Below are positions 2,201 through 61,050 of a stretch of 63,966 bases of DNA, one piece after another. How positions within the stretch are numbered: position 1 is the stretch's first letter; each line of letters starts with the position of its first letter. The translations under genes and the position numbers were made by a program. Where the stretch lies: positions 54,717,864-54,781,829 of the forward strand of contig NC_057718.1 in the NCBI RefSeq assembly GCF_004010195.1. Reading direction: 5' to 3'. This stretch comes from Chiloscyllium plagiosum (Eukaryota). The notes beneath the pieces were generated by a model that searched no databases, had not been told where the DNA came from, and worked only from the letters and a program-made list of their open reading frames with translations.

Positions 2201-4259
2201 GCCTACAAACTCAGTGAACATGCTTCCAATAGTACATGAAAAGCTGCTAAATAAGGAAGAAATTAATCAAAAACAATTAGCACACATTAGAAGAATTCAG
2301 TGTTGAGGAAGAACTGAGTGGCATCAGACACCTGCACCACTGCTATTGTTAATTTAAATAAATGACAAATTCATAAACTTTATTGCTCAGCAGTTGCAAA
2401 AAAACAGTGCTAAAAGTCTACAATCTGTGGCAATTAAAACAAATGTCCTCTCATGTGTCACACATTTCTGGCCAGTTTTACATTCTCTGCCATCTGCCTA
2501 GGAAAATCAGTGTTGCGTCCTTAACAACCCAAAGATTTCCATATATTGCTGAGTTTGCACATTCAGAACTGATTCGAAGAAAATTACATCGAGCAACCAG
2601 TAGAGAATTCAACACTTAATGAATATCAGTTGCATAAACTAATATTTATTTGAGTTAAAAGGTATGGAGTTTCCCAAATCAAGCAGGTTTAGAATGACAA
2701 TAACTACTTAGGGTACAATCATAATATTTCCTGTGGGAAGGTAATGCGGAACAAGGAGACAGTACCTTAAAATTAGGACTTGGCCATTTGGCACAGAAAA
2801 TGCATCCTTCTGAATATGCAGGACAGCAAAAATCTGAAATACTCTTCATCCAAAAGGTTATGGAGTATCTAAGTGACTAAACATCAAAGCTAAAATCAAT
2901 AGTATTTTTGTGAAATATGGTATCAAGCGATATACGGTAAGTCACTGAGATGTACATTTGATCATGATAAAATGGAATAGACTTGAGGGGCTACATGGTC
3001 TATTCCTGAGTTTCTTGTTTATTTTATTAGTCTACTAACAGTTACTTACACAGTTCATTCTGAAATCATGAACTTAACATCAATTTCCTTATCATTCAGT
3101 ATTACACATACAGCTACATTTAACATGATTATGTTTGTGTTCGTGTTTATTTCAGAGGACACTTCAGAAGATATTTGTTTTCATTGCCACAGATTGTAGG
3201 CTTTTTGCAACTGCTGGACCACTGTGTTTATTTGTTTGTAATTATAATTGAGATAGCAGACGGATCACTCATTATCCAACCTACCCAATTGCCCAAGACT
3301 TTAATAGAAGTCTATCAATTCATTAAAATGATTTCAACTCTGATTTCACTTATACAAACATTAAAAACAGCAATGGCTTAAGATGGCAATTCACCACCAC
3401 CTCCTCAAGGCCAATAAAGGACAATAAATGCTGAACTTGGCAAAGATACTAAAGTTAAAAAAAAGCACTGTGCAGCTTAGATTTGTTCAGAAAATGGATA
3501 AAATAGTCAGCAAGAATGGTCATTTGACTTTACACAATATCTGAAACATTAATGCATAACGTTGAAAATGCTATCATCTAATCTAATTGGCAATTGATTC
3601 ACATTTGAAAAGTTCATTTTTGTGAATATGCAAATTAAGACACCCGCTTCCTGTTTCAATTGCTGTGACTAATTATGTGTGCATCTGAGTTGATAACATC
3701 TCCTTAAGGGGAGGGACCACTTTGATAAAAAAAAACCACCAATTGGCACATCAATGCAACCTGTTTATTCCAAAGGAATATAAAAAATAATTTAGACACT
3801 GTATGCTTTGTTCACCTCCCCAAGATCTGCATAATTCAATATACCTCCATTTAAGCTTAATTTCCATGTTATGATAAACTGGAACTGCGTACATTGTGGT
3901 CCATGGCTAAAGGAGGGCTCTAATTCTTTATTTTTTTCCCACTTTATACTGAAAACAACTGTAACGTTTGACTTGTAACTTATTCATTTTTCTACATTGT
4001 ACCTTAGATGGCACCAGAAATGGTGACTGTACATTTTTCACTGTACTCCTGCATCCCTGTTCTTGAGTAAACATGACAGTAAACTTAATTTTAATTCTAT
4101 TTGCTTGCATATGTTGACATTTACAGTTGTTAATCTGAAACAGATATTTGTCAGACTTTTAGGAAGGAGTTTATAAATTTGCTACCAATCTAATTTAGAA
4201 TTTATTTAACAAACAATTTGTGAAGTGTTACTCTAATGATTCATAAATCTTAGATGTAC

Positions 4260-4324
4260 CTGTCCATAAACTGAAGAACAAAATCTTCAAATTCAGCTGT
4301 GGCTGAGCAAAGCTCCCTCTCTAC
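4260..4324 (-). CDS. PSME4: PSME4 exon 13 equivalent (65 nt)
   Basis: ttttag|GTA GAG AGG...GAC AG|gtacat; [21 protein letters not shown]. Confidence 0.95.
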
Positions 4325-7300
4325 CTAAAATAGAAGAAAAAGTATGCCATTTCAGGTAAAGACATAAATTAAAAAGATTTTATAAACACAGTTCAAGCAG
4401 AATCACAACAGAACAAAGTAGCCCACTTGAGTGGCACCCCGCCAAACACTTTCAACATTTGCACTCTGCACCGCTGTTGTATGTTGGCAGCAATGTACAT
4501 CACTGGCTGTTCCACTCACTCCTGCTCCTTCCAAGCCTGTGACTTCTGCTTGGAAGGACAAGGTCAGATGGATGAGAACAACGCAACCTGTATGTTCTAC
4601 TCCAAGCCATATTCTATCCAGAGTTGAAAGTATACTGGTGGTTCTTCACTGTCACTGTCAAAATCTTGGAACTCCCTCCTAACAACATTGTGGCTTTGAT
4701 CAACCCCCAAGGACAATGGCTGATCAAGAAGGTAGATCAACTACATTCAAGGTCAGTTAGGGATGGGCAATAGTGCTGGTGTAGTTAGTGAAACCCACAT
4801 CCCATGAATGAACTAAAATTTTTTTTCATATTAAGATTTTTGTGTCCCCTCACTCTCACTTTATACCCATTTTCCTTCTTGAAAGGGTTGATTTTTTTGC
4901 TAGGGGACAGTTTTATTGGGTCAGGGAAAACAGTTGTCCCAGTTAAAATGTAATTCTTTGGCAGGGAATTTTACACTGCATTGACATCCCATACTTCTAC
5001 TCAAGCCCACAACTAATGAGGAGAACCACACCTTGCTTCAACTTAATCAGTGGTCAGTTAAAATGACTTATACAGGGCCTACCATTCCCAGTCATATGGT
5101 CAGCTGCTCACTGCTCCCAGCAATACTGTTGTGACTGTATTCAGTCCCCAGTGGAGATGAGTGCAGAAGCCAAACACCAAGGCAAGTTGGAGGTGTGTCA
5201 GAGAATTTTCAGGTCCAGGCTAGACAAATGGAAACAAGTGGCCCATGCAAAGCTGGCTACCCAAAACCATTCACATGCAAAAATGGAACAGGGGCTGAGG
5301 GTATTTGCATTGTGCCCAATTTTACACCATCAACCAACTGAAACTCAGACCCAGGGAAATGCAAAATTCAGCCCTTGCGCAAAAGATAGAAAAGTGCTTG
5401 TCTGTAAGAGGTATCACACCTAAACTACTGTCAGACAAACGAACAAAATGACCTGCCAAGCAGAGGTGGCTTTGTGATTAGTGCCTCAATGTTGAGAATA
5501 TTGACTTGGTACAAGGTGCTGCTTTTGACCTCCTTTCTTGACATGAGATTTGGAAAATTGTGTGAAGTAACTTAAATAAAAAAAACTTTGATGTATCTGC
5601 TCTAAATTGTCTAAGTCCCCAGAAGTGTTGGATTAATTGTTGCCTTGTAAGTCATAACTTCAGTTCCAAGTTTGACAACCTAAAAACAAGATAGCCACCT
5701 GGTGAAGCAATAGCAAGGAAAATGGTCCCACAATCAGTTCTGCTGTATCCAGTTATGAACTGCAGTGATCTATTAGTAACTGAATGAGGGGGTTCCACAA
5801 ACATCCCCATCCTTTAGGATGGGAAAGCCCCATGTTAGCCCAAAAGACACGGTTAAATGGTGCATTTGCAAACAAGTCAGTAGTGCTTAGCAAATGATCC
5901 ATCTCGGCATCCTCATGAAATCCCCAAGACAACTGATGCCAATCTCCAGACCCTTCATTCACTCCACATGAAAACGAGAAATACCATTTACAGAACAACC
6001 TCAATTAGCCAAACGAGACGGACGGGGAGTATTTTGTTCGGATAACAGTTTGGATAATGGGTAGAGTTTTTACTGGACCTTGAGATCTTGTTCAGATAAT
6101 CTGAAATTCAGACAAGTGATGTTCGGATAATTAAGATTGTTCTGTATATTTTAGTAATAGTCGACCCCTATGTTTGGTCAAATAAGTGCTCCGGTTTCCT
6201 CCCACAGTCCAAAAGATGTGCAGGGTCAGGTGAATTGGCCATGCTAAATTGCCCGTAGTGTTAGGTAAGGGGTAAATGTAGGGGTATGGGTGGGTTTCGC
6301 TTCGGCGGGTCGGTGTGGACTTGTTGGGCCGAAGGGCCTGTTTCCACACTGTAATGTAATCTAATCTAATCTAATCTAAAAAAAAAACCTAGAATTTTCC
6401 ATATGTCCCATGTAAAAGTTGACCCTAGTTCTTCACAGAAAACAGATCAACGTTTATGAGTCAGTGTGCTGGCCGTCACATCCCACTCCAGCTTTCCAGT
6501 CTGCAAGATGTTCCGCTCCACTCCTGATTTTCCAGTCCACTGGCTGCTGTGTTCCACTCCCGGTTTTCCGAATTACCATAATTCAATTTTTGCTTTATTT
6601 GTTTAGAGATCAATTGAGCTTCTGCTAACAATACAGTATGAATTTTGACAGGCATGATTTTCAGCCTTTCAAAAGTAATAATAGTCAACCCCATAGATTT
6701 AACCAAAAGGTAGTCAAGAAAATTTGACTATTACTCAAGTACATATGGTAGCCAAAAGCATTTGGAAACAACAAGGGCTGTGGTCTTTGGTGACAATACT
6801 GAAGCTGTAGAACAGAACATATGCTCCAGAGCAATTTACGTCCTTAGCGAAATTGATTCAATACATCTGCAAGACAAGCATCTATCTGGAATACTATTTC
6901 TAGATGCATGACCCAACAAGTTTGAGAGATGGGAGGGGGGTGGTGGTAACAGACTTCCAGCATCATAGCAGCAGGCCAAATGCCACTTACAATGAGTTTC
7001 AGTCACTTTTTCTCCACAATCCGTGGTTTTCAAGTGTATCTGATCTCAGTCCACAAGCAATTTAAAAAAAACTTTACCCAAAAAAACCACCAAAGGACAG
7101 GTTGTCCCACTGATTTCCAATTTGCTTGATGCCACAATTCTTGAATTACTCAAGCCGTGGGAAGGCTATTTCAGACATGCCGTCATCACAGGATGTGTTC
7201 AAAGAAATATTTGTTGGGCAATGTCTTGCAGACCAGTTGTAGATGACAAAGGCCATCAGCCTCACAACAACTATCTGACTGATTCCTGGGTTGGTCAACA

Positions 7301-10300
7301 ACTTGTGAGTATGCAAGATACTAGCAGCCTTCAGAAAGCTGCAAAGGCAGATAGTGCATCTTTTTCTCCAATAAAATATTCAAAGCTTGAAGCATGCCAG
7401 TTTAATTTCCCCCACCAGTCGATGTAATCTGTGTCCTTTAACCATTAACTAACAGACTTCGCAGTTAAAGTAGCAATCACTTGTGCCTCCTGCAAAGAGA
7501 TGAAAAGAATCTAGTGATGTGAGATTGAAGAACATCAAGTCCTGGCAACAAAAGGATTCTCACCAACCCTGCAGACGGAGTCATTTAATTGCTTTCCCAC
7601 TTTTATTTTACCCCTTCCACCCATAACACCTATGCAATAATAATCTGACATAAAAGCAGTTGGATAACCATCAACGTGGTGAAAGACCACTTTTCATCAG
7701 TTCAAAACTGGTTGGTCTGCTAGAGTTCTCCTTGACTATGCATTTTAGACTGCAATGCCGCAAGTATTGGGAATACAAATTTAACTGGTACTCTGAGTCA
7801 CCTGCCATTTAGAAAATTTTAAGTGATTTTGGAGAAAAGGCAAGCAAAGTTCTGAAGGCAATGGTAGACTGCATTAATGGCCCTTAGGTATCATGTTGCA
7901 GAAACAGTTGCCTTGTGATACTGGAGTTTGTCTTCGCTTGGGATTGAAAGGATGTAGTTTTAAAATTGAATAATTGATTAGGTGTTAATGAGTGCCACTT
8001 GTTTGAAGAGCAAGTTTTTTTTATAATAAATGGATCATTTTTAGTTAATTAAGGAAGCCTGGTGACAGTCTCTCTTATTCTGGGTAGAAGAACAAAAATG
8101 AAACAATTAGGCATTTGAGTGACTGAATCAGTACATTAATACAAATGGTGTAACCAGTATGGTTGTGGGGCTTGATCATCAGTGCATTCCACTCATCACT
8201 GTCACTACACAAGGTCCAAGACTACATACTGAGGAATGCAATAAAGCTTTTTAAAAAGTCTTATCACATGCTGTGGGTATCAATGGCTAGGCCAGTGTTT
8301 ATTATCTTTCCCTAAATGTCCTTCACAAAGTTGTGATGTGACCTATATTTTATTCATTCAGGTTGTGTGGGCTTCACTGGCTAGACCAGCATTTATTACT
8401 CATCTCTAATTGCCTTTCAGAAGGTGCAGATGAGTTTCACTTCATGTGGTGTAGGTACACTCTCAATGCTACTATTTCCAAGATTTTGACCCAGCATAGA
8501 ACAAATGCCAGAGAAGCGGAATGAGTATGGTCACAGTTGAAAGCTTTCTGTCATAGCACACCAAAAGGCTGAAAACTGTAAAGCCCCTCAAGGCTGCATG
8601 TCCAACAAGAAATATGATCAACAGTATTGAAACTTTATTAAAGTGCCTTAGTGATATATGTTGAAAGAAGTTTATTTCTGCTGCACTGTCATTTACAATT
8701 GGAAATGTTTTGCCTCAGGTTGGCATGGAATGTATACTGTAAATATTAGTTATTACAATCTATGACCTCAAACACTTTTTGTACTGCTGCGGAGTGTTCA
8801 AGGTCTGTGCAAAACAGCAACTTTTAAAAACTGAGTCAACGGGTCCAGATAACATACATTTTTGGGAAAAGCACAATACAACGCACAAGTCAGAAGTAGT
8901 ATGGAATACTTTCTCCTTTCCTGTATGAATGGAGTTCCAACAATACATGATTCAACACAATTCATATCAAGATAATTTGCTTCTGAAGGGTAGCTAGACC
9001 CAAACACAGACTCTGCTTTTTGTTTTCAGTGCAATTTGCTTGATCAGCAATCCGAAGAACACTTTAAACATTCGTTCTTTCCACCATTGGTGGCAGCAGG
9101 ATGCATCATAGACAAGATGCAGTACAGCAACTTGCCTAGCCCCCTTTCAGTCCCAAATACCTAGAAGGAAAAGGGGGCAGTTGGATGGTAAGAGACAAAG
9201 TACACATGAATATGTATTGGTAGCTATTTCTTCTGAAAACCAGTGCAAATGTGAGTCATATCCTGTGCTATAAAATTATAAAGCTTAAGTGTTATGTTTT
9301 CAATCATTTCTTCACCCTTCCTTAAATTAACTTATTTTTAAAGGAAATAAACACTTTTGATGACTTTTAAATGAAATTACCTCTGAAAGATCATTTCTCT
9401 CTTGCAAAACTGATGAACAGTCCACCAAAGGCACAAGAGTAGAAAATGTAGCTATAAACTGGAATGTGATCTACATGGAAGTAAGAACAAATTTTTTAAA
9501 ATGCACAATTTTACAAAACTTAACTTAAACCAGAACTATATCTTTATCAATATGTTTGTATCACATTATTTTTCAAGAAACACAAATAAAACATCAAGAT
9601 ATTTCCAATGTCCACAATCAGCAGTCCCGAGGCTTTTTGGGGTATTATTTTCTATCAATTTAGAAAACATTGTTGGACAAATATAATAACCACCAGTATC
9701 TATAAATAACAAATAATGAACTTCCTCACCTATTCTGGGACATGTGCCTCCATACTATTACTTGACTTCTGGATTAGAGTTTTTCAAACTCAAACACAGT
9801 TTACGGCTTAGTTTTATCAATTTCTTAACAACTTATATTTATACAGTACACTGATCATAATAAAACATCAAGGATTTTCACAAAGGCATTAAAAAAAATG
9901 TGACATCAAATCACATATGAAATCACATATGATGACACTAGGACAGATGCCCAAAGCCTACTCAAAAAAGGCAAATTTTGCAGATTGCCTTAAAGGTAAG
10001 GTGGTTTCAACAGCTGAAGGTGTCAAGCAAAAGTCAAAACATTAAATCAGGAATTCTTCTCAGACCAGAATTAGAGCAGCAGTCATATTGGGAATTGTAG
10101 AGCTGGAGGAGATAACAGAGATAAAGAAGGGACAGGCTATGGAAGGATTTGAAAACAAGGATAAGAATTTTAAAATATGGGCATTATTTATCTGGGAGCC
10201 GATGTATGTCCGCAAGAACAGGTGTGATGGATGAATGATATATGGCGAGACAAAAAAAAATTGAGAATGTTTGACTCAATTCCATAAATGTATAGTCACA

Positions 10301-13300
10301 CATGTAAGAATATGTTTATATACCATGCACTTGCTGAAATCATTTGGGTCCACTCCAGGTAGGGCTCTCATTAATAGAGGTAGCATGTGTGTTGGGCCTT
10401 CAGGGAACCATTTTCCTCCAGAAACCAGACTGCGAGCAACTCCTATTACACAGCTTAGGGTCGCTGTGAGTTGGTGAGGTTCTGTTAAAGTTTGCATTGC
10501 AGGATATGTTCTAAGATTAAATTCAAAACACAGAAGTTACATTTAAAAGATTGCTCTCAAAAATAATGTACAACTATGATAATATAAAAACAAATAAATT
10601 TATCTATCATAAAAATAAATTGAATTATCACAATTTGTATTTATTGTCTCCATTTTCATTCATCTTTGGGAGTCACCCATTTTCTAGTAGTAAATGTTAT
10701 TGTGTAAACGCAGTGTTAAAAGCGTCAGTCTTGTTTTAGATATTTTCGTTGTAAAGAGTCATTTCTATAACAAAGGATCTCACGCCTTGTACAACACTGC
10801 CAAATAAAATACAATCCCTCCTAATTTGAAGATAATCTTTTTCCTTGTGTCACATTGGACACCGTCCCACTGCTTTGGAATGCACCCCATGACCCAAATG
10901 ACAAAACAAGGCCTGACACAAACGGCGAAGCACAAGAGAGGAATAAATATAATAGTTATCACTGTGACAAAGTACTTTGAAAAATACTAGGGAAGCTAAT
11001 GGGGCTGAAGACCAATAAGTCTCCTGGACCTAACGGGATACATTCTAGGATATTAAAAGTACTCACTACAAAGATAGAAGCAGCACTGGAAGTAATCTTC
11101 CAAGAATCCTTAGATTCTGGAAAAGTCCCACAAGATTGTTAGTCATTTATTCAAAAGGGGCAGGAGACAAAAAGCAAGTGACTATAGGTCAATTAGCTGA
11201 ACATCTGTTATTGGGAAAATGATAGAGTCAGTTAGAAAGGACATAATAGCAGATATTGTAGAAATATTAGGTATGATCAAGCAAAGTTGGCATGGACTCA
11301 AAGAGGAAACCACGTCTGACAAATTTATTGGAATTCTTTGAGGCGGTAACAAGCAGGATAGGTAAAGGGGAAGTTGTGGCTACAATATATTTTGGTTTTC
11401 AGAATGTGTTTGATATGTAATAAGGTAAGAGCCCAAGGTGTGGAAGTAGTATATTAGCATAGATGGACAACTATCAAACTAACTAGGGCAGCACAGAGGT
11501 TCAGTGGTTAGCACTGCTGCCTCACAGCACTAGGGACCTGGTTTCGATTCCAGCCTTGGGCAACTATCTGTGTTTGCACATTCTCCCCATATCTGCTTGG
11601 GTTTCCTCCAGGTGCTCCAGCTTTCTCCCACAATCCAAAGACGTGCAGGTTAGGTGAACTGGCCATGGTAAAATTGTCCGTAATGTTCAGGGATGTGTAG
11701 GTTAGGTGCATTAGTTAGGGGTAAATGTAGAACAGGAGGGGAATGGGTCTGTGCAGTTTACTCTTCGGAGGGTCAATGTGGACTTGTAGGGCCGAATGGC
11801 CTGTTTCCACATGGTGGTGAGTCTATGATTAACGATTCTCATCAAAGATAAAAGGTAGAATAAGGAGCTGCATTTCAGGATGGCGACCTGTAATTAGTGC
11901 AATCCCTCAGGGATCAGTCCTGGAGCCACAATTATTTACAATATATATTAGTAACTTAAATGACTAAAGTGAATATATGATCAAGTTTTCAGATGGGACA
12001 AAAATAGGTGGGAAGGTAAATGATGAAGATGACAATCTGCAGTGGAATCAAGATCAGCATTTAACGATTTTTTTGACTTTCTACTTAATAGGTTAAGCGA
12101 GTAGACAACTTGGCAGATGGAATAGAATACGAGAAAATGTGAGATTATGCAGATTAGCAGGAAGAGAAGTTGAATATTATTTAAATGGAGAAAGACTACA
12201 GAAAGCAACAGCATAGAGGGATTTGGGAGTCCTCATACATGAATTATAAAAACTAGCATCGACATTCAGCTGGTAACATGGACGAAAATGGAAATGTTGG
12301 CCTTTGTTTCCAAGAAAATGAAGTCTTAAAATAAGGAAGTCTTCTTAATACTAAACAAGGCATGAGTCAAACCACAGCTGTAATACTGTGAACAGTTTTG
12401 GTTCCTTTATGTAAGGAAAGGCATTGGCGTTGGAGGCTGTGTAGCAAAGGGTCACAACGCTGATCCCAGAGAATGAAGAGCTTGAGGAGATGTAATATAG
12501 TAGCGTTTGTGAACAAACATGTTTCCTGACTATGGCTAAAAATAATTGCACATAGTAATACAATTACAGCAGGCTAGGGTGCGAATGAACATTTATGATA
12601 TGCTATTAAATGCAAGATGTCACAGACCACGAAGATTGGGAAAGCCAACCCACCTGAAAAGGTTTCTGAGAATGTCATGAACCAGTCAATGTCATTTCCT
12701 GTCTAATTAAGCTCCAACACCCACTTTTCTAAAAACTCCAGATGGGCCCTGAAAATTTCACCCACATACCTCCTCTAAAATTGTATCCTTCAGTTTTTGG
12801 TGTTTTTATTACTTTCTTCTGACCAAAATGAATCACTTCACATTTCTTGACATTAAATTTCATCTGCCACTGGTTCCCCCTGCCCATCAACCCATCCCAC
12901 CAAGTTGTCATTTTTTAAGTCTACACTACACTAATATATATTCGTCTGTGGTTCACATTACTTCCAAGTTTGACCATGAGAACCTTTTTCCACATATGGA
13001 GTCAGCTACTACGAGGGGGCATAGCTTTAAATTAAGGGGTGGTAGGTATAGCACAGATGTTAGGGGTAGATTCTTTACTCAGCGAGTCGTGAGTTCATGG
13101 AATGCCCTGCCAGTAGCAGTGGTGGACTCTCCCTATTTATGGGCATTTAAACGGGCATTGGATAGGCATATGGAGGATAGTGGGCTAGTGTAGGTTAGGT
13201 GGGCTTGGATTGGCGCAACATCGAGGGCCAAAGGGCCTGTACTGCGCTGTATTTTCCTATGTTCTATGTTCTAATACTGCAAATTTTGAAATTGTGTCCT

Positions 13301-16300
13301 GCACATTAAGGAGGAGAAAGTGAGGACTGCAGATGCTGGAGATCAGAGCTGAAAATGTGTTGCTGGAAAAGCGCAGCAGGTCAGGCAGCATCCAAGGAAC
13401 AGGAGAATCGACGTTTCGGGCATAGGCCCTTCTTCAGGAATGAGGAAAGTGTGTCCAGCAGGCTAAGATAAAAGGTAGGGAGGAGGGATTTGGGGGAGGG
13501 GCGTTGGAAATGCGATGTGGAGGGAGGTCAAGGTGAGGGTGATAGGTCGGAGTGGGGTGGGGGCGGAGAGGTCAGGAAGATGATTGCAGGCTAGGAAGGC
13601 GGTGCTGAGTTCGAGGGATTTGACTGAGACAAGGTGGGGGGGGGAGGGGAAATGAGGAAACTGGAGAAATCTGAGTTCATCCATTGTGGTTGGAGGGTTC
13701 TCAGGCGGAAGATGAGGCGCTCTTCCTCCAACCGTCATGTTGCCATGGTCTGGCGATGGAAATGGGAGGGTGAGTTGAAGTGTTGAGCCACGGGGTGGTT
13801 GGGTTGGTTGGTCCGGGTATCCCAGAGGTGTTCTCTGAAACGTTCCACAAGTAGGCGGCCTGTCTCCCCAATATAGAGGAGGCCACATCGGGTGCAGCGG
13901 ATGCAATAGATGATGTGTGTGGAGGTGCAGGTGAATTTGTGGCGGATATGGAAGGATCCCTTGGGGCCTTGGAGGGAACTAAGGGGGAGAGGTGTGGGCG
14001 CAAGTTTTGCATTTCTTATGGTTGCAGGGGAAGGTGCCGGGAGTGGAGGTTGGGTTGATGGGGGGTGTGAACCTGACGAGAGAGTCACGGAGGGAGTGGT
14101 CTTTTCGGAACGCTGATAGGGGAGAGGAGGGGAATATATCCCTGGTGGTGGGGTCCGTTTGGAGGTGGCGGAAATGACGGCGGATGATACGCTGTACATG
14201 GAGGTTGGTGGGGTGGTAGGTGAGGACCAGTGGGGACCTCTGACCTCTCCGCCCCCACCCCACTCCGCCCTATCACCCTCACCTTGACCTCCCTCCACCT
14301 ATCGCATTTCCAGCGCTCCTCCCCCAAGTCCCTCCTCCCTACCTTTTATCTTAGCCTGCTGGACACACTTTCCTCATTCCTGAAGAAGGGCTTATGCCCA
14401 AAACGTCGATTCACCTGTTCCTTGGATGCTGCCTGACCTGCTGCGCTTTTCCAGCAACACATTTTCAGCTCCTGCACATTAAGGACTCGTTTAATAATAA
14501 AAACCTGAAACCTTTTCAATGGAACCATGTCTGAAACAAGACTCTTCCTTGTAGTAAAAACAACATTTTGGTTACAGGTCGATCTGCTATAATGTGCATT
14601 TCATTAACACAAATTTGCTGTAACACGATTGACAAATTGGGGACACTTTTTAATGCCCAAACTTTTAAAACGTACGTTGGCTGTAACACGGTTACATCGC
14701 TAACACTTTTAAGCGCTGTTTCTAAAGCATGATTTTTCTGTAATGCAGAGTTGCACCAGAATGCAACTACCATGTTGTAGAAAAACCTTCTGTATTTATT
14801 CCCAGCTAATTTAAGAACTAAATTATAACAACTTTTACAAAATCTGTGGCATGCTATCTTTTGACACATCCACTGAATCATTTGGATATTTTAAAAGGAA
14901 ATATTTTGTTAACAGGTTTTAAAATCCATTCTAAACATGTTGAACAGATTTAAACCATTATTTTCAAGAACTGCTTACAATGGCATTAAGCTATTGGCTT
15001 GCAGATATGTAACAGAAGTAATTAAGTGATGCAAACATTAAAAAAGGCAGGCGTAATTTAAGACTTACTTTTCAAGTACAGGTGGGATGACCAGCTCTGG
15101 CCGCATCAAAGCCAAATTTTGAAGGGCCTGAGCAGCCTCCAGACTTCCAGTCTTACTGAACATAGCAAGCAATACAGGTTGTTTGATGCTTTCCACAAAA
15201 TCAGTAATGTCCTGCTCTGTCAATTTGTGGCTATCTGGTACAACATTTAGCCAACTTTCCTTTTTGTACCGCTCTCTGTGCAGTCTTCTCACAACACTAG
15301 CAGGTAAGCGTTGTAACAATTTCATCAGTTTCATCTGTTCAAAAATAAATCAATTCCGAGTCTATTAATTGTGAGGAAGGAAAAAGGAATTTACATGAAT
15401 CGTGACGAATTATGATAAAAATTAGTTCTAAATATGAGATATTAAATATGAGATATTGCAAATCAAATACAATTCTTGATAGGCTTTCTCAGAATACAAT
15501 GGGACTTTGATCAGGTGGGCAAATGGGCCTAGGAGTGGCAGATGAAGTTTCATTTAGGTATATGTGAGGTGCTGCATTTTGGTAGGGCAAATCAGGGCAG
15601 GGATTATACACTTAATGCTAAGGTTCTGGGCAGCGTTTCCGAACAAACAGACCTTGGGTTGCAGGTCAGTAGTTTCTTGAAAGCGGAGTTGCAGGTAGAC
15701 AGGGTAGTGAAGGCATGATTCCTGATGAAGGACTTCTGCTCAAAAGATCAATTCTCCAGATCCTCTGATGCTGCCTGACTGCTGTGCTTTTCTAGCATCA
15801 CACTCTCAATTCTGATCTCCAGTATCTGTGGCCCTCATTATCTCCCAGTGAAGGAAGCATTTGGCACACTTGCCTTTATTGGCCAGTGCACTGATAATAA
15901 GAATTGGGAGGTCATTTTGCAGCTATACAGGACACTGGTTAGGCCACTTTTGGATGACTGCATTCAATGCCAGTCTCCCTGCTTTAGGAAAGATGTTGTG
16001 AAACTGGAAAGGATTCAGAAAAGATTTACAATGATGTTAACAGGGTTGGAGGGCTTGAGCTATAGGAAGAGGCTCAATAGGCTGGGGCTATTTTCTGTGG
16101 AGTGTCACAGGCTACAGGGTGACCATACAGAACTTTATAAAATCATTTGGGAGCATGGATAGGGTGAATAGTCAAAGTGTTTTCTCCAGGGTAGGAAGTT
16201 CAAACTACAGGACATCAGTTTACGGTGAGAGGATAAAGATTTAGAAAGGACCTATGGGGCAACTATTTCCACATAGAGAAGTGGTGCATGTATGGAATGA

Positions 16301-19300
16301 GGAGCAAGAGGTGATAGTGGAGGCAGGTACAAGTACAACATTTAAAAAGCATATGCATATATGAATAGGATGGGTTTAGAGGAATATGGGCCAAGTGCTG
16401 GCAAACGAGACAAAATTAATTTAGGATATCTGGTCGGTGTGAATGAGTTGGACTGAAGCATGTGTTTCCTTGCTATACATCTCTATGACGCAGTGACCCA
16501 AGTCAAGTGCAAGACAACTGGGAATATATAAATACACAAGTATGAAAAGGATGTAAAAGAGAAGAGGGGAAAGGAAGATAGAAATGATAGCTCCATGCTT
16601 GCATTAATAAAAGCACGATGAATAATTTCCTGTATTTAAAATGTACCTTTATTATTCTAATATAAAAACTAAATAACTGACATGTTTATTACATGTAATT
16701 TCCTCCTTTGGATTTAATTGTCAATTAAAAAAAGCACGTAGAATAGTGTTAAAACGTGTGGAGGAGAAAAGAAATGTCAGTATCAAGGAATGTTAAAACA
16801 CCAATAGTAGCAAAATATAGGTGCCCTAAAAGCATCTAAAAGTCTGTTTTCAAATTGTGCATTGTGGAAAATTCGCACTGCAAAAACTTTGGAAAAGCAA
16901 TATCAGTTAGGCAATAGAAAAATTATATAGAGCAAAATTGTAAGTAACAAATTAAAAACAAAGCTGGGGCAATGATATAAACTTTCCATACATAATCCTT
17001 AAGGTCCCAAATATAAACATTGGAAAAAAATAGTAGGGAGAAATAAAAATGAAATAATTTAAATAACTTCTGTTTTTATTTTAATAAATGGAAGAAAACT
17101 AACATTCAGTCATGATAGTCTTTTCCTTTTGAAAACTCCAATTCATTTTCAGCTAATTTTTATACATGGTTAATTATATCCCAATTTTACAACAAGTAGA
17201 GAAGTTTAGCATTAAGGGATGAAGAAAGAACGCTAAACTATTTATCCAGTTGGGGGTGAAAGCTACGGTATGACAAACTCCTGCTTTGATAAACTCCACG
17301 TTTATTTAAAGTAATAAAGTCTACAAGAAATGAGACCAAGTTACTGTGAAAAACATTAAGCAAACTCTCTGCTATGCTCCAAGTACTCCTGAAAAATATT
17401 ATATTCCATATCAAATATACCCAACTATGCGCATTGGCATGCAGGTTTCTGAGATCTGCAAATTCCGTTGGACAAAGCGTTCCATTTAGGGATAGTCAGC
17501 ATGGTTTTGTATGAGGGTAATAGTGTCTCACAAACTTCATTTTATTTTTAGGAAGTAACCAAAAAGATTGATGAGGGCAGAGCGGGAGACATTGTTTACA
17601 TGGATTTCAGCAAAGCCTTTGACAAGGTTTGCATAGCAGACTAATTATGCAAGTTAGATTACATGGGATTCAAGTTGAGCTTGCTAACTGGATACAAAAT
17701 TGGCTTGACAGTATAGGACAGAGGGTAGCTGCGAAGGGCTGTTTTTCAGACTGGAGGCCCATGACCACAGACATTGGTACTGGGTCCACTTTTGTTTGTC
17801 ATCTATAGAAATGATTTGGATGATAATATAGGAGGCATGGTTAGTAGATTTGAGGATGACACCAAAATTGGTGGTGTTGTGGACAGTGAATGTTATTTAA
17901 TATTACAAAGAGATCTTGATCAGTTGGAGCAATGGGCTGATAATTAGCAGATGGAGTTTAATTTGGATAAATATGTGATATTGCATTTTGGGAAAATAAA
18001 CAAGGGCATGACTTATACAATTAATGGTCAGGTCCTGGGTAGTGCTTTGGAACAGAGACCGAGTTCAAGCATATCTTTCTTTGAAATTTGTATCACAGGC
18101 AGACAGGATGGTTAAGAAGGCTCTTAGCATGTTTGCTTTCATTGCTCAGACCTTGGCGTACAGGAATTGGGATGTGATGTTGAGGTTGCACAGGCCACAG
18201 GTGAGGCTTCATCCAGAGTACTGTGCACAGTTCTGGTCACCCTTCTGTAGGAAGGATATTATTAAACTGGAGAGAGTTCAGAAAAGGTTTACTAAGATGT
18301 TACCAGGAATGAGGGTTTGAATAATAAAAATAGGCTGGAGCAGAGGAGATTGACGGGTGACCATATTGAGGTTTATAAAATCATGAGGGGCATAGAAAGG
18401 CAAATAGCAACGGTTTTTTTCCCCCTAGGGTAGCGAATTCAAAACTAAGGGACATATTTTTAAGATGAGAGGTGAAAGATTTAACAAGGACAATGAGGGC
18501 CAATTTTGTTATTTTAGAGTGATTCATATGTGGAATGAACTGCCAGAGGAAGTGGTGGACGCAGATAGAGTAACACTTAAAAGGCAATAAATACATGAAT
18601 AGGAAAAGTTTGGAGGGATAGGGGCCAAACGCAGGCAAGTGAGACAGGTTTAGTCTGGGAATATGGTTGGCATGGACTAGTTAGATGGAAGCGTCTGTTC
18701 CTACGCTGTATGACTAGAACTCTAAGCTTTATCCTGACAGCAGGGTTGCTTTACTGGCAATGCATACAGGTGAATTTAGTTTCTGTCTGGATTGGAAGAG
18801 TAAGCCATGTGGTACAATGGTAACGTTCCTACCTCTGGATCAGAAAGCCTGAGTTCAAGCCCACCTGCTCCATTAGTGTATCTCAACAAGTTTGAACATA
18901 TTGCTTAAAAAAAATCTGTCTCATTCAGAAGATACAGGCATTTAAAAAGACAAAACTTTTCATGCCTAGGATTGAAACAACTTGGGTGGTGGCCCAAAAG
19001 CAGTATTGGATTGGCTTATCATTAAGAAGAACAGCTGTATTCAGTTCCATTGCAGTTAAAAGAATTAAATATCAGGCACTGTATACAATGTGGCCAACTG
19101 GATATTACTTGTTTTGCATCACTGCCAGATACGCTGTTTTTATCCAGCAAAGTGTCGACTGATTCTGCTCCTCCTTGAATCGAGTGTTTAGTTATGTTTA
19201 CGTAGCCTTGCTCAATGATGTTTCAAGCTACTGACTGAGACAAAAATGTACAAGAGTCATAGGGAGTTATTCAGGGTTCAGTTTTGAGATACTACAACAG

Positions 19301-22300
19301 GTCCATTGAGATATGCATTAGGTATAGTTTGAATATTTATTTCACACTATCGGTACTGGCAGTCAAGAACATCCATTGAAATAAGTAAACAGCTAAACAG
19401 GCATAACAAGAATCAGAAGTACCTACCAACCATCTCCCATTATTAGAAGGATGATAGAATGATGCAATGCTGTTAAAAAATCCATTCAAATGCTTCTGTG
19501 CTAATTTACTGGGACCACCCTAACAAATTAAAAGATCTGAAAGTTAATCAAATTGCATTTCAGAGTGACATCCAATTACACACCACATTTTAATTCAAAG
19601 TGGAAGTCATTTTCAAACAAAAACATTTTGCACAATATGAAGACGTTACTTTCTCCAGTCTAAGTATGTGCCTTAATAGACAAATTCACAGTTGAAAATT
19701 ACCAATTTTAACCAAATAACAGATAGCAAGAGTGGTAAGGCAGTTACCCATCAATGGAAATCGAGATTCCCAATTAATTTTCACTATTTGAGGAATTTGT
19801 GAAACAAAATCAATGGGCGATTGAGGCTGCAAAAGTGAGCAAAATTAATCAGAACAGTTTAGTAAAAATAGCTGAATAATCAACACATCCTTCTCTTCAT
19901 TCACTAAGAACATAAGATATTGGAGGAGGAGTAGGCCATCGAGCCCTTCAAGCCTGCTCAACCACTCAATAAGATCAAGGCAGATCTTTGCGTGGCCCCA
20001 CCTCCACTTACCTGCCTGGGCGGCAAGGTGGCACAGTGGTTAGCACTGCTGCCTCACAGGACCAGAGACCCAGGTTCAATTCCTGCCTCAGGCGACTGAC
20101 TGTGTGGAGTTTGCACATTCCCCCCGCGGGTGCTCCGGTTTCCTCCCACAGTCCAAAAATGTGCAGATCAGGTGAATTGGCCACGCTAAAATTGCCCGTA
20201 GTGTTAGGTGCAGGGATAAATGTAGGGGAATAGGTCTGGGTGGGTGCGCTTCGGCGGGTCGGTGTGGACTTGTTGAGCCGAAGGGCCTGTTTCCACACTG
20301 TAAGTAATCTAATCTAATCTAACCTTCTCACCAGTTGACGATGATGTCACAATAACAAATCTGATTGGACACAAAGAAAAGCAAAGTAGGGCAAGGCATG
20401 GCAGAACTTAGACACTTAATGGCAAGGTCCTGGGGAATGTTGCTGAACAAAGAGACCTCGGAGTGCAGGTTTATAGTTCTTTCAAAGTGGAGTCGCAGGT
20501 AGATAGGATAACGAAGGCAGCATTTGATATGCTTTCCTTTGTTGGTCATGAGAAAGTCTATAGCCTTAAAACTTGTCTTTAAACATTTAGACTAAAATGT
20601 AATGCTGAATTATAGAACACATTTACTGCACTAGAAAATAGACAGGCAGGAAGGCTCAGAAAAAGGGGGGAACTTAAGGAATGCAAAAGATAGAGACACC
20701 TGTGCTCACTATGTGATAACAGGATACTGTAAGACAATTAAGAACATTTGCCTTAGCATCAGTGAATCTGTGTGAACACGACACCAAGTGATAACATTCA
20801 CAGCCATTCCCTTGTGAAATTAATGACAGTGTTTGATTCTGACCCTGAAACAAAACTTGGTACTATCAAAAACTTTGTAATTAATGGTCAGATGCTGCCA
20901 ATTATAATGGATTCTTATTACTCCTTGCAAGCGGAGCAGTCAGAGAGAAAACAGAATCTTTGCTGTTACAAAGCTCTGACTTGAGAGTTCAGAAGGACAG
21001 TAGAGAGACCTGTTTAGTGCTGAGGCTGTTGAAGCCAGTAGAAGATTAACTCTTGGATTGAATTTAATTGCATTTTGGGACTTTATGATATTGAGTAGCC
21101 ACTACCATTTATTAAATACAAACTCTAAAAGATAATATTGATGAAGCCTTAACTTACTTGCTGTTCTTGCAGACCACTCTACAGACCTTATGGGCTGTTC
21201 CACTGTCAATTCTAATTAATCAGATCTTATGTCTCATTTGAATGTGAATCACAAACTTGAAAAGAAGGCATGTTTAATTCGAGACTAATTAAATCACTTT
21301 AAATACAACCTTGCAGTAACATTTCAGCCTCCAGTACAGAATGATTCTGTGCTTAAGATAAAGAGCAGGAATCTGCTCCCAGCTTAAAATTATTCTAAAC
21401 CTAACACCGAAGAGAATCTGACACCATCTGTGTCAGGAAGCCATTTTATGGTCAAAAGTTTGCCCCTCCTTGCTAAGGAGCCATTTCGTAAAACAATGTT
21501 ATCAGCCATGCGAGCTGTGCAAGGTTACCTTATGACATCTCCCACTTAATTTAGACTGGTACTTCTTTATCGGAACTTATCTTGCCTGCAGATGCCTAAC
21601 TCAACTGGGTATGTTTTTCCCACCTAATGTATAGCTCAAGGCCTGTAGGAGTGATAAGTCAAGCGCACACAATCTGTCAATTAACTTTTCTTCTTTACAA
21701 ATTAATGTCTTTCACTGTAATTTGTCTAATTAAGAACATGCAATGCTTTTGTAAACTTTTGTATAAAGGAAGCCACTTTGTATCAGTACATCGGAGTAGC
21801 CTGCTGGGGTGCTTGAAGAGCTGGTACCCTACTCTCCTAGGTTCTTAGAACTTAATTTAGCTTATAGGTATCAGTGCTATGTTGTGACAGTGATGCTATT
21901 AGTGAATAAAGGGAATGACTAAAATTAAACTAATCTGTCTGTAAGAGGTTTTTAATTCCAAACTTCCAAAGAGTATGATCTCTGGGTTGAACCAAGAGAG
22001 AGGCTTTACAGGTCTCAGTCCACAAGGGATTCCCTGGGCTCTCACAAATCTCCACTTTAACAGTCAGAGAATTGAGCATAGGAGTTGGGAGTTCACATTG
22101 CAGCTATACGGGACATTGGTTAGGCGGCGATTGGAATACTGTGTGCAATTCAATATGCAAATAGACTGGGTGAATAATGTTGCCATTGGATCCAAAGAAA
22201 GGGAATTCATGGAATGCTTACAGGATGGCTTTTTGGAACAGCTTGTCATGGAGCCCAGAAGGGAGCAGGCTATTCTGGACTTAGTGCTATGTAATGAGCC

Positions 22301-25300
22301 AGACTTTATAAAAGATCTTAAAGTAAGGGAAGACTTAGGAGACAGCAATCATAATATGGTAGGGTTCAGTCTGCAGTTTGAAAGAGAGAAGGCAAAAGCA
22401 GATGTAATGGTGTTACAGTTAAATAAAGGTAATTACAAGGGCATGAAAGAGCAACTGATAAAAATCAACTGGAAGCAGAGCCTATCGGGAAGACAGTAGA
22501 GCAACAATGGCAGGAGTTTCTGGGTGTAATTGAGGACACAGTTCATCCCAAAGGAAAGAAAGATTATCCGGGGAGGATTAGACAGCCATGCCTGACAAAG
22601 GAAGTCTGGAAATGTATCATAGAAAAAGAGAGAGCCTATAAAGTGGCCAAGAGCACTGGAAATCAGAAGATTGGGAAGACTACAAAAGCAAACAGAGGAT
22701 AACAAAGAGAGAAATAAGGAAAGAGATGATGAAATATGAAAGTAAGTGAGCCAGTAATATTTGAAATCATAGCAGAAGTTCCTTTCAATACATAAGAAAT
22801 AAACGAGAGGCAAAAATAGACATTGGACCGCTCCAAATTGATGCCGGAAGGCTAGTGAAGGGAGGTAAGGAAATAGCTGAAGAACTTAATAAATACTTTG
22901 TGTCAGTCTTCACAGTGGAAGGCATGAGTAATATCCAAACAATTAACGAGAGTCAAGGGGCAGAGTTGAGTATGGTAGCCATTACAAAAGAGAAAGTGCT
23001 AGAAAAGCTAAAAGGTCTAAAAATTGATAAATCTCCTGGCCCCAATGAGCTACATCCTAGAGTTCTGAGGGAGATGGCTGAAGAAATAGCGCAGGTGTCG
23101 GTTGTAATCTTTCAAAACGATCACTGGAGTCAGGGAAAGTCCCAGATACTTTGAAAATTGCTGTTGTAACCCCCTTCTTCAAGAAAGGATCAAGACAAAA
23201 GATGGAAAATTATTGGCCAATTAACCTAACCTCAGTTGTAGGTAAAATTCTAGAATCCATCGTGAAGGAGGAGATTTCTAAATTCTTAAGATAAAAGGGT
23301 TCTTTTTTGGAATGGCAGCTAGTGACAAGTGTGTCCCACAGAGTTCCGTGTTGGGGCTGCAGCTGTTCACTTTATATATTAAATGACTTGGATGAAGGGA
23401 CTGGGGGCATTCTGGCAAAATTCACCGATGATACAAAGTTAGGTGGCCAGGCAGGTAGTTGTGAGGAGGTGGGGAGGCTGCAGAAACATTTAGACAGTTT
23501 AGGAGAGTGGCCCAAGAAATGGCTGATGAAATTCAATGTGAGCAAATGCTAGGTCTTGCACTTTGTAAAAAAGAATACAGGCAAGGACTATTTTCTAAAT
23601 GGTGAGAAAATTCATAAAGGCCAACAACAAAGGGATCTGGGAGTGCTAGTCCAGAATTCTAAGGGTTGAGTCTGAGGTTAAGAAAGCAAATGTAATTTTG
23701 TCATTTATCTCAAGAGGGTTGGAATGTAAAAGCAGTGATGTGCTACTGAGACTTTATAAAGCTCTGGTTAGGCCCCATTTAAAATACTGTTTTGAGCCCC
23801 ACGCCTCAGGACGTACATACTAACACTGAAGCATGTCCATTGATGATCCCTGGAATGGTGGGCCTAACATACAATGAACGGCTGAGGATCCTGGGATTGT
23901 ATTCATTAGAGTTTAGAAGGTTGAGGGGATAGAAACTTAGAAGATAATGCATGACAGACAGCGTGGACACTGAGAATTTGCTTCCAATAGGGTGGGATAC
24001 TAGGACCCCTGGGCATAGCCTTAGAATTAGAGGAGGTCAATTTAAAATGGAAATGAGGAGACATTTCTTCAGCCAGAGGATTGTGGGCCTGTGGAATTCA
24101 TTGCCATGGAGCGCAGCAGAGGCTAGGACATTAAATATCTTCAAGGCAGAGATTTATAAATTCTTAATCTCGCAAGGAATTAAGGCAAACGGGAAAAGTG
24201 TGGGTAAGAGGCGTTCAAATGTCCATCAGCCATGATTGAATGGCGGAGTGGACTCAATGGGATGAATGTCCTTACTTCCACTGCTATGTTTTACGGTTTA
24301 ATTCAGGTCTCCCTCCTATTGGAAGTATGTTGTGAAACTTGAAAGTGTCCAGAAAAGATTTACAAGGATGTTGCTAAGTTGAGGAGTTTCGCTATAAGGA
24401 GAGGCTGAATAGACTGGGGCTGGTTTTCCCTGGAGCATCGGAGACTGCAGAGTGAACCCGGAGGCTTAGAACATCATTCGGGGCATGGATAGAGTTAGAT
24501 GACAAGATATGCATGTGCATGCCTGCACCCATAACTAGAGGGCATAGGTTTAGGGTGAGAGGGAAAAGATTTCAAAGGAACCGAAGGGGCAACTTTTTCA
24601 CAGAGGGTGGTGCTTGAATGGAATAAGCTGCCAGAGGAAAGGGTGAGGCTGGTACAATTACAACATTTAAAAGGCATCTAGATGGGTACATGAACAGGAA
24701 GGGTTTAGCGGGATATCGGCGAAATGCTGTCAGATAAGACTACGCTAATTTAGGATGTCTGGTCGACACGGACAAGTTGGACTGATGTGTCTGTTTCCGT
24801 GCTGTCTCTCTCTATGACTCCACGTATACTGAGAGATTGAATAAAACTTTATATAACATAGCTTCTTCACCACAAAGATAATTCAAACAAAATACTTAAA
24901 ATAAAACAAAGAACTTGCTATGAATTGCAATAAATCCATAATCAAATACTAACCAGCATGGAAGTGATCCAAACCACCACATGGCCAATATCATAAGCAC
25001 TTGACAAATATTTGGAAATTAAAACTTGGCTACTTCCTACTGGCAGATTTAAGCTTCTCAAAAATCTGGTAAAAATCTGGAATATACATAAATTATTCAA
25101 TAAACAATTTTATATAAAACATAACTTTAATTTTATTTAAAAAACAATGAACACACACATAGGATTAAAATTGTAACAGCATCTTTTCTTGTAATAGATG
25201 ATCATTGATAATCAACTACAAAATAGGCAATAATAAAATTGATTAAAATGTTTTGACAATTACAACTTTTAATTATTTATACTGTCAAGCTCCAAAAACA

Positions 25301-28300: not shown

Positions 28301-31300
28301 AGTTTCTGGTTAGTATTGCATTGCTGTGATAGAGTTTGCCATGTGAATGTTACAAGACTACAGATTTAAAGCCCTTCATTGACCATCAAGCACTCTGCAG
28401 TCCTGAAACGCATATGCAGAGGAACCTCGAAAATCCAGCATTCAATTATCTGAATTGCAAGATCCTGATGCTTGGCTAAGCTATGTTATCCGGCATTAGA
28501 TTAACCAAACGAAATACTCCCCACCCGGTATCCTTCAAATAATTTCCTCTGTAAATGAGTGTCTTTTTTTTAAAAAAACAGTTCATGGAATGATTGGCTT
28601 ACCCCTTCCCATTGAGGGAGGTTTTGAACAGTGATGTAAAGGTGTATTAATTCATCAAACCAAAGCCTGCAGGAAATAAAAAAATTCAAAATACATTATT
28701 GAAAACAGATCAGCAATTGCAACATCAATAAACAATGACTGCCTTTGAGTTAAGATACATGTAGATTTCTGTACATTTCCATTCAATGAGCTGATCTCCT
28801 GCAATTGATCACATGGGGTGAAAAGAGCAAGTGTAGTCGTTAAGTGACAGAGGTTTGAGGGCAGGAAATATTTGAACTAAGGACAACTGAAGAAACTAAG
28901 CTCCCATTTTAAAGTGATATTCTATATTTCTATAGTAAACTGTTTTCATTTTTACAATGCAAAGTACTTCAATAAAACAAGCACAATGCAAGTTCACTCT
29001 TTCATAGTGAAACATGACTGTGGCTCTACCAAGATGATGCCAGCACCAATGTTAAATAGACAGATTTTATTGCAAACAGCACAAAAAGTTGATAAATGTG
29101 TAGTAAATGAATTTTGAATGCATTAAATTAGTTTTCCATAGGGTTGCTATCAAATTGAAGAATGTGAAGATATACCATTTCTCATTATATCTCCATCTCT
29201 GTTTCTCTCTGCTTCAACCATCAACTCCATTCTTGGATTCTGCTCTGCAGCACTGAGTATTAACAGTTTCTCTTGCACTGAGTCCTAAATCACTTGAAAT
29301 TAATCTGTGTCACTTCATTCTCTGTTCTATTACGAGTAACGTTTTTTAATCATCAAATTTCATCCCAAAATAACATTACATACTTTCCAACAATTCATTT
29401 CATTTTATTTTGTCCTAATCATTATTAAACTTTATGATCTCAAACCATGAAATATGATGCTTTTAAAATTTGTGAACTACCTCCAAGGATCTCATATCGT
29501 CTGTATATTCTTCCAGAGTTACTGTAGATTTTTATGTCTAGTCAACTTTTGAAGCTTCAAAAATCCTATCAAAAATGGAGGCTGACTTACATTCAAAACA
29601 AAGCAGTAAATCACCAGATGAATGTGGGTGCTCACGATCTCTCAGATTTGCCATGCAGGAGGTATCGGCCGTGTGTGTCTTAACCTATTGTGCATCTTTG
29701 TAACACAGCCTGCTTTACCTGTTTGATCCTTTGCACCTACCTATAACATGTAGGAGGTTGACTATAAGTACAGTATGTCACAGCATGCAAGTACGTATGA
29801 GTCGGGGGGAGAAGAGTTGCAGGGAATCAACTTATAAACCAAGATATGCTGCTTGTGGCTGATAAAACTCGACTGTCTTACACACCATAATACACAATAC
29901 TTTTTTTTTAAAATGTTAGAACAACATTCAGTTAAATCCTCAGTTGAAATAGCGTCCGCATTCTCGAACAGCGGCGCTTTAAAGTGAACCCAAGGTTCTC
30001 AAAAGAATTCAATATTAAAACTGGACTTCAGTCCCTTTGGACATTTCTTGACCAGAATACCCAATGTACAAGTTACAGCACTGTTCTAAACAGATGCAAT
30101 ACTGTGTATTCACAGCTGAAATAACTTCCTAAACAAACAATAAATAGGAAATAAATACTGCAACGTTAGGAATTTTAGTACTATTTTCAGCTAAGAAAAG
30201 TATGTTAAAATGCTATATATTTCAAAATACTTATATTCAAATAAAAACAATTTTGAATAAAGAAACAATTTACAGTTAATGCTCGAATTAGTCAGCAGTT
30301 TTAAATTGACCCCATCTGGTGACAGATGTTGATTATGCAGGTAGCAGCTGAAGTTGCAAAACAATTGACACCAATTAACTTTTCCACTAGATAGAGCGGC
30401 ACGGTGGCACAGTGGTAAGCACTACTGCCTCACAGCGCCAGAGACCCAGGTTCAATTCCCGCCTCAGGCGACTGACTGTGTGGACTGTTTCCTCCCACAG
30501 TCCAAAAATGTGCAGGTTAGGTGAATTGGCCATGCTAAATTGCCCACAGTGTTAGGTGAAGGGGTAAATGTAGTGGAATTGGTCTGGGTGGGTTGCGCTT
30601 CGGCGGGTCGGTGTGGACTTGTTGGGCCAAAGGGCCTGTTCCCACACTGTAAGTAATCTAAACTTCAATCAAAGTTTTTTGTCCTCATGATTCCATTAAC
30701 GTTAAATGATTAGGAGATGGGGAGTGGCAGGATTTGAAACACTGCAGAAAAGGGAAATGTTCACTTTGCAGGTTACAGAATAGCAAGTCTGTGACAAATT
30801 AGGTTCAAGTAAAACTTGCAAACTTTAAATGGATATATTGAGATTATTTTATTAAGAGTGTTAAATTGAAATGATGTTGCTTGGCAATGCTAAACAGAAG
30901 CTCATTGTATACTGACATGGCATTTCATATCTGACTTTTTCACCCATTCCATCTCCTTATAGATTCTTGCAGCTGGAAGGGCTGCTCAAAATAATGGATT
31001 TATGAAAATGGACAATAAATGAGGCAGGCTGGGAACTTGAGACAAGCCTTGATCAAAGTGACTATGCTAATAAACATGCTGCAGAATCCAGACAGGTTGC
31101 AGCTACAGACACACAGTATCCAACTGACCCAGCAGCTGTAGACAATACAACTTCCCATGCCATGCCCAGGACAATCACAAACACAGGGGCACCTCACACC
31201 TTTATTTGCAGAGGGCTACTTGACCTATGTGCACCCAATGCCTCCAGAAATGGATGCTTAAGGACCATCCTGCCATCGACAAGTCAAGGCCTGTTTGGGT

Positions 31301-60720: not shown

Positions 60721-61050
60721 ACAGTGGTTAGCACTGCTGCCTCGCAGCGCCAGAGACCCGGGTTCAATTCCCGCCTCAGGCGACTGACTGTGTGGAGTTT
60801 GCACATTCTCCCCGTGTCTGCGTGGGTTTCCTCCGGGCGCTCCGGTTTCCTCCCACAGTCCAAAGATGTGCAGGTCAGGTGAATTGGCCATGTTAAATTG
60901 TCCGTAGTGTTAGGTAAGGGTTAAATGTAGGGGTATGGGTGGTTTGCGCTTCGGCGGGTCGGTGTGGACTTGTTGGGCCGAAGGGCCTGTTTCCACACTG
61001 TAAAGTAATCTAATCTAAAAAAAAAGTAATCTAATCTAATCTAATCTAAT
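60721..61050 (+). mobile_element. Young SINE, slightly 5'-truncated
   Basis: Near-identical to 426-733, (taatc)n tail. Confidence 0.9.

Follow-up and report, generated by a model that had tools for sequence, protein, structure and literature searches.

A long, otherwise ordinary LTR, very probably solo, in an intron of the shark gene PSME4

Introduction

An intron of PSME4 in Chiloscyllium plagiosum contains an insert with the outward marks of a retroviral LTR, and the question raised by this locus is what kind of element left it there. A sequence-only reading of the window (the whole stretch of DNA that was analysed, 63,966 nucleotides) had proposed an unusually long solo LTR, possibly derived from a complex, foamy-like retrovirus and possibly retaining the remnant of an accessory gene. 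The prototype foamy virus has an LTR with a long U3, and foamy U3 regions may carry a Pol III miRNA hairpin cassette. The diagnostics of foamy-like ERVs listed in the available part of PMC5210030 are the RT clade, a tRNA-Lys/Asn PBS, a GGGTG junction between PPT and LTR, a Gag without Cys-His box and an internal promoter. We consider in turn the boundaries of the insert, the family to which it belongs, its internal layout, its coding capacity and its probable parent.

Results and discussion

The insert spans 20549-22062 (1514 bp, TG..CA), starts with TGAGAAAG and finishes with CTTTAACA. It lies within a repeat that, from the look of its translations, we take to be a CR1, and an uninterrupted relative of this host repeat is present in the window on the - strand (40207-39988). 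On this relative the match to the left flank extends to 40073 and the match to the right flank begins from 40076; because the two flanks overlap there by exactly four bases, the insertion is clean and was accompanied by a 4-bp duplication. The coordinates and the host-repeat relative thus confirm the TG..CA insert of 1514 bp with a gtca duplication in CR1 that had been described from the letters alone. The short inverted termini reported with it are also present as short, integrase-type ends, though with only 7 of their 10 bases complementary; a more extensive terminal inverted repeat was not found. Public-run contigs from two studies (X2 record 16 and X4 record 32) read across this copy's own right junction with no differences. 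Even if one of the two stems from the source sample, the other is independent, which makes an artefact of assembly unlikely. We regard the insert as very probably a solo LTR. The coordinates of all features are collected in Table 1.

Table 1. Features of the PSME4 intron and of the insert (positions are those of the window)
Feature	Position	Strand	Remarks
PSME4 exon	19427..19519	-	human residues 320-350, E 5e-12; ~1.0 kb from LTR start
Host CR1-like fragment, before LTR	20414..20548	+	window repeat comparison
Target-site duplication, left copy, GTCA	20545..20548	.	exact 4 bp
LTR, very probably solo	20549..22062	+	1514 bp, TG..CA; family boundaries in public-run contigs
U3, putative, ~1.24 kb	20549..21790	+	from TATA position; ends common across family, middle (~20840-21720) more variable
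Two 15-base direct repeats, 75 bases apart, 87% alike	20707..20796	+	5' U3; each with a GATA-type word
Stop-free stretch, 72 codons	20766..20984	+	first ATG at 20823, giving 53 aa; judged chance
Two adjacent short palindromes, 9-bp and 6-bp stems	21333..21378	+	U3 fold scan
TATA box (21762-21767) in 13-base context	21757..21769	+	identical to CmiERV scaffold 324 LTR, by eye
R, putative, ~140 nt	21791..21930	+	AATAAA at 21905-21910; no consensus splice donor
U5, putative, ~130 nt	21931..22062	+	from AATAAA position and insert end
Target-site duplication, right copy, GTCA	22063..22066	.	no differences in X2 record 16, X4 record 32
Host CR1-like fragment, after LTR	22063..22151	+	resumes at 24302-24795 past second insertion
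Preceding PSME4 exon, coordinates approximate	24954..25076	-	human residues 278-319, E 1e-11; ~2.9 kb from LTR end

A second insertion, a + strand CR1-like piece of 2.15 kb (22152-24301), interrupts the same host fragment 89 bases past the LTR, and the AATTCA found at 22147-22152 and at 24300-24305 may be its 6-bp duplication.

Parts of the insert were contained in 20 of the 24 public runs listed (11 studies, 4 organism labels), the best of them holding 45% of the insert words. Four runs (X1-X4) were aligned to 20430-22180 at 85% likeness. Among the 24 of 821 loose-end rows listed, 69 contigs of X1 have loose ends just before 20549 with an agreement of 0.35, which means that their flanks are unrelated; at the other boundary, behind 22062, the loose ends of 6 X4 contigs show an agreement of 0.47. 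These data support both ends of the insert as boundaries of a multi-copy, dispersed family. Other copies thus share the boundaries of this one, the 5' end in X1 and the 3' end in X4, and the earlier proposal of a solo LTR is upheld, as a member of a multi-copy family, by the recurrence of its boundaries in many contigs with unrelated flanks and by the clean 4-bp duplication. Our literature searches listed no description of this LTR family, and it may already be catalogued in Dfam/Repbase.

This copy has drifted at least ~2% away from the family bulk, and at 35 of the 39 LTR sites listed (40 of 350 difference rows) the majority of the X1 depth carries a different letter. The observed/expected ratio of CpG is 0.17 in the insert versus 0.29 in the window. 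Small indels (12 of 37 rows listed) and skips of 70-860 bases, the latter mostly in the U3 (15 of 84 rows listed), distinguish the copies of the family. The X1 depth amounted to ~10,000-18,000 in several end bins versus ~3,000-7,000 in the middle, several other end bins also being low, and this contrast was not read as copy number. In the majority letters before 20549, the two central positions of the last four bases form a pyrimidine-purine step, the final position is a C, and a T stands two places before those four; the pattern fits the target preference that the available part of Serrao 2015 (PMC4422553) gives for each of the four viruses making 4-bp duplications, whether spuma or gamma, the fit being weak (agreement 0.35) and not extending to the GTCA of this copy itself. 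Neither a PBS nor a PPT was readable in the loose-end majorities (24 of 821 rows listed), in which the flanks are mixed. A metagenome scan with a 21-base word from the U5 gave 0 matches. Two matches obtained in a scan of viral contigs with a 17-base word extended over 17-19 bases only and were set aside as chance. In run X3 (organism label B) contigs match 20600-20784 with 2 differences and 20899-21043 with 0. The insertion, or a very close copy of it, may be common to organism labels A and B.

The TATAAA (21762) and AATAAA (21905) that had been pointed out near the 3' end were both found in place, and neither hexamer occurs a second time on the insert's + strand; a TATA followed by an AATAAA near the 3' end arose in 35 of 2000 dinucleotide shuffles. 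On established retroviral biology, the borders between U3, R and U5 would lie near 21790 and 21930. This layout also bears on the reading under which the insert would not be an LTR at all, being instead a chance composite or a DNA transposon, non-autonomous and duplicating 4 bp on insertion. Such a transposon would be Ginger-, Sola- or Kolobok-like. No paired copy with internal genes was seen, nor any second copy in the 64-kb window. However, a terminal inverted repeat of ten or more bases is missing, the ordered pair of signals is rare among the shuffles, and both insert ends are shared family boundaries, and we consider a non-LTR origin highly improbable.

Further structure was found within the U3. 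Family copies skip part of the region of the two direct repeats near its 5' end, and an enhancer duplication is possible there, a weak reading since the flanking 75-base units align poorly. The adjacent palindromes at 21333-21378 reached a z of -4.07, the best of 72 + strand windows (144 on both strands), and of -3.5 when refolded. They were examined as a pre-miRNA dumbbell and rejected as such, the stems being real but too short. A third short palindrome lies in the central U3 at 21418-21436, the pair at 21333-21378 forming the strongest local fold of the insert, and the three may possibly represent dimer binding sites. A hairpin in the R region was considered as a TAR-like element and dismissed, its fold being no stabler than shuffles (z -0.08 and -0.52). 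Rfam gave no match in the insert beyond one chance match (E 0.89), and Tandem Repeats Finder returned one 19-base match only.

In an ORF of 70 aa the sequence-only reading had seen a possible accessory-gene remnant. The stop-free stretch of 72 codons begins ~220 bases inside the LTR, and stop-free runs of at least this length on the + strand of the U3 occurred in 287 of 1000 shuffles; the three + frames of the U3 contain 34, 26 and 25 stops versus 29.8 +/- 4.7 expected. Counted from the LTR start, the first stops of the three + frames fall at codons 1, 11 and 15, so that no frame enters the U3 from upstream. Pfam, searched with the ORF and with six frames, yielded 2 weak matches only (E 0.085 and 0.15), which did not pass the cut-offs; a word search with the 72-aa ORF gave no candidate among proteins of 39-126 residues, phmmer with the + frame holding the ORF returned 0 matches against 1.84 billion representatives, and an Atlas search produced no usable match. 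Such blanks weigh little because the libraries may hold few shark ERV proteins, and it is therefore the shuffle test that carries the verdict on the ORF. Among family copies a one-base indel falls within the ORF stretch and skips run across it. Being of chance-level length, lacking a homologue in these searches and disrupted in other copies by frame-shifting indels and skips, the stretch is on present evidence no gene remnant, and the accessory-gene proposal is not sustained.

Descent from a foamy-like virus, or from another class III or basal retrovirus (FLERV, SnRV-like, lokiretrovirus), would leave a solo LTR by the same route of formation and would account for its length by a long U3. The LTR of AciFLERV measures 1498 nt (PMC5512871), equal in length to the 1514 bp found here, and most pairs of teleost FLERV LTRs span 1368-1707 positions, with 4-nt duplications (PMC5210030). 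Both features, an LTR of ~1.5 kb and a 4-nt duplication, are shared by the teleost elements AciFLERV/AcERV and AliFLERV, and AciFLERV also ends in TAACA as the insert does. The prototype foamy virus resembles the insert in its poly(A) signal within R and in its 4-bp duplication (PMC3694450). Length and 4-bp duplication are nevertheless not diagnostic for foamy viruses, because class I ERVs have both, and the features by which teleost FLERVs are defined (Lys PBS, GGGTG junction, RT clade) belong to parts of the element that a solo LTR does not include.

Several properties of the LTR itself speak against a foamy-like parent. Read from the LTR start, every frame meets a stop after at most 14 codons, whereas acc2 of AliFLERV runs into its 3' LTR; acc2 of AciFLERV also ends before its LTR, and the frame test was made here on one decayed copy. 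A bel-like frame entering the U3, as in the prototype foamy virus, is likewise absent. Foamy R regions hold the major splice donor, and the R of the prototype virus comprises 193 nt with this donor upstream of the poly(A) signal (PMC3694450), whereas the putative R of the insert, of ~140 nt, has no consensus donor, the best of 12 GT sites between TATA and AATAAA scoring 6.5 of 11 in a simple match count; the donor of the prototype virus itself shows low complementarity, and the available literature does not establish the feature for fish FLERVs. The LTR starts with TGA, whereas three FLERV 5' LTRs start with TGTC and the class III motifs with TGT (PMC3601003); the 3' LTR of NviFLERV-1 starts with TGA, and no family difference rows fall at 20549-20693 among the 40 of 350 listed. 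By eye, AciFLERV, whose U3/R/U5 borders are unmarked in the figure available, has TATAAA near positions 450 and 660 of its 1498-nt LTR and AATAAA near 1010, much further 5' than the 1214 and 1357 of 1514 here. The LTR of ERV-Spuma.0-Sca, the single catshark foamy-like element in print, is 866 bp long (PMC10699275). Hairpins of pre-miRNA length are absent from the insert, which is without an Rfam match, and a search of the U3 for a miRNA cassette revealed only the 9-bp and 6-bp stems, with no B box. Of the foamy-like proposal, the length and the 4-bp duplication stand, whereas an ORF running into the U3, a consensus donor in R and a TGT start are missing from this copy; we do not favour this parent and judge it rather unlikely. 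Decidedly less probable is that the LTR represents an undescribed, abundant spumaretrovirus-like family of sharks, with a very long U3 and a short R-U5 unlike those of teleost FLERVs, whose variable central U3 once coded for a regulator. If true, this would push the long-U3 foamy design back to the cartilaginous fish.

With moderate confidence we assign the parent to class I (epsilon/gamma-like, 'ERV1'), an assignment drawn from weak LTR features of one decayed copy, with no internal sequence, PBS or PPT seen. Gammaretroviruses, as foamy viruses, make 4-bp duplications (PMC5210030, PMC4422553), and a class I LTR of 1.4 kb exists in LTR12C (PMC12147996, PMC11417402). Among the TG-starting end motifs in the available part of Benachenhou 2013 (PMC3601003), only the gamma motif admits A as the third base; of the places that this motif specifies, 5 of 8 agree by eye with the 5' end of the insert and 4 of 4 with the 3' end. 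The mean of the gamma LTRs used for training in the same study is 521, and the 1514 bp of the insert lie above this gamma average. In the available parts of PMC8672886, PMC7947760 and PMC2664473 we found no data on LTR length or duplication that separate the classes.

A further likeness was found to the LTR of CmiERV scaffold 324 (Callorhinchus milii, lineage II; PMC4422223), which also belongs to an ERV of a cartilaginous fish and shares the identical 13-base TATA context; this ERV groups with epsilonretroviruses in Han 2015 (PMC4422223). The seven bases shared beyond the TATA hexamer have a probability of 6e-5 on base composition alone, the true chance of the 13-mer being well above this value because the match was found by eye among several LTRs and the surroundings of TATA boxes are not random. 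By eye, a GTAG...CTAC stem with which R begins follows the TATA box at a similar distance in both LTRs, the stem in the insert being no stabler than shuffles. In contrast, the LTR of CmiERV scaffold 324 measures ~600 bp by our own count and starts with TGT, and no further similarity was apparent by eye.

The end motifs and the TATA context also bear on a Ty3/Gypsy retrotransposon with a 4-bp duplication, from which a solo LTR would arise by the same recombination without any virus being involved. Some fish Gypsy families make 4-bp duplications and have LTRs of more than 1 kb. By eye, the insert agrees with the 5' motif of the fish Gypsy element rGmr1 in 4 of 5 positions, the third base being the one exception (PMC3601003). 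At that base, however, all vertebrate-relevant Gypsy motifs given in the available part of this source have T, the 3' end fits only in part, the mean Gypsy training lengths are 174-695 bp (PMC3601003), and the TATA context matches that of a retroviral LTR, CmiERV scaffold 324. A Gypsy parent appears unlikely.

Under the preferred class I reading, a provirus would have integrated into an old CR1 fragment in the PSME4 intron, its integrase presumably making the 4-bp duplication that is observed. Recombination between the two LTRs would later have removed the internal genes and left one LTR, as we infer because a single LTR lies between intact duplications. The length of the LTR may be explained by a U3 that carries a long, subfamily-variable, non-coding enhancer region and no gene. 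The human LTR12C/ERV9 offers a comparable case, a class I solo LTR of 1.4 kb that is lengthened at the 5' side and lies antisense in an intron, with no transcript traced in the available parts of PMC12147996 and PMC11417402; it is a primate element whose extra length consists of short tandem repeats, unlike that of the insert, and the comparison is one of analogy, not homology.

The PSME4 intron holding the LTR is ~5.4 kb long. The LTR is intronic and antisense, since the PSME4 exons on both sides of it lie on the - strand, which bears out the earlier statement that the LTR promoter points antisense to PSME4. Intronic solo LTRs show a bias toward the antisense orientation (PMC1794541). This orientation against PSME4 may explain why the LTR has persisted, since PSME4 transcripts would presumably not read its poly(A) signal. 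This orientation argument is not airtight, an AATAAA being present inside the LTR on the sense strand of PSME4 (- strand) at 21113. A donor-like site at 21157 (8/11), together with this AATAAA, could allow cryptic processing of the PSME4 pre-mRNA. In X3, a run presumed to be RNA, one contig (record 24) has its first base at the predicted start, 21790; as contigs are unable to show starts, it was not counted as a sign of expression. Among the 24 listed runs, no RNA run was found to contain the insert.

The insert is a real, long, otherwise ordinary solo LTR, at the high confidence given above, and nothing that we observed ties it to foamy viruses in particular. It can serve repeat annotation and mark an insertion site in comparisons of related sharks. 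Its non-coding U3 of 1.2 kb, conserved towards the ends and variable in between, is among the longer ones of fish ERVs and could illustrate LTR enhancer turnover. Its importance would grow only if full-length relatives turned out to be foamy-like, and even in that case such ERVs have been published from cartilaginous fish before (PMC5512871, PMC10699275).

Other repeats were observed in the window. A repeat of ~300 bp at 20017-20317, just before the host CR1, has copies at 425-734, 30396-30675 and 60721-61018 (76-94% alike). From its appearance we take it to be a tRNA-derived SINE. An L1/Tx1-like element at 53500-57300 on the - strand retains pieces of ORF1, endonuclease and RT and is interrupted by an N run near 53950-54280.
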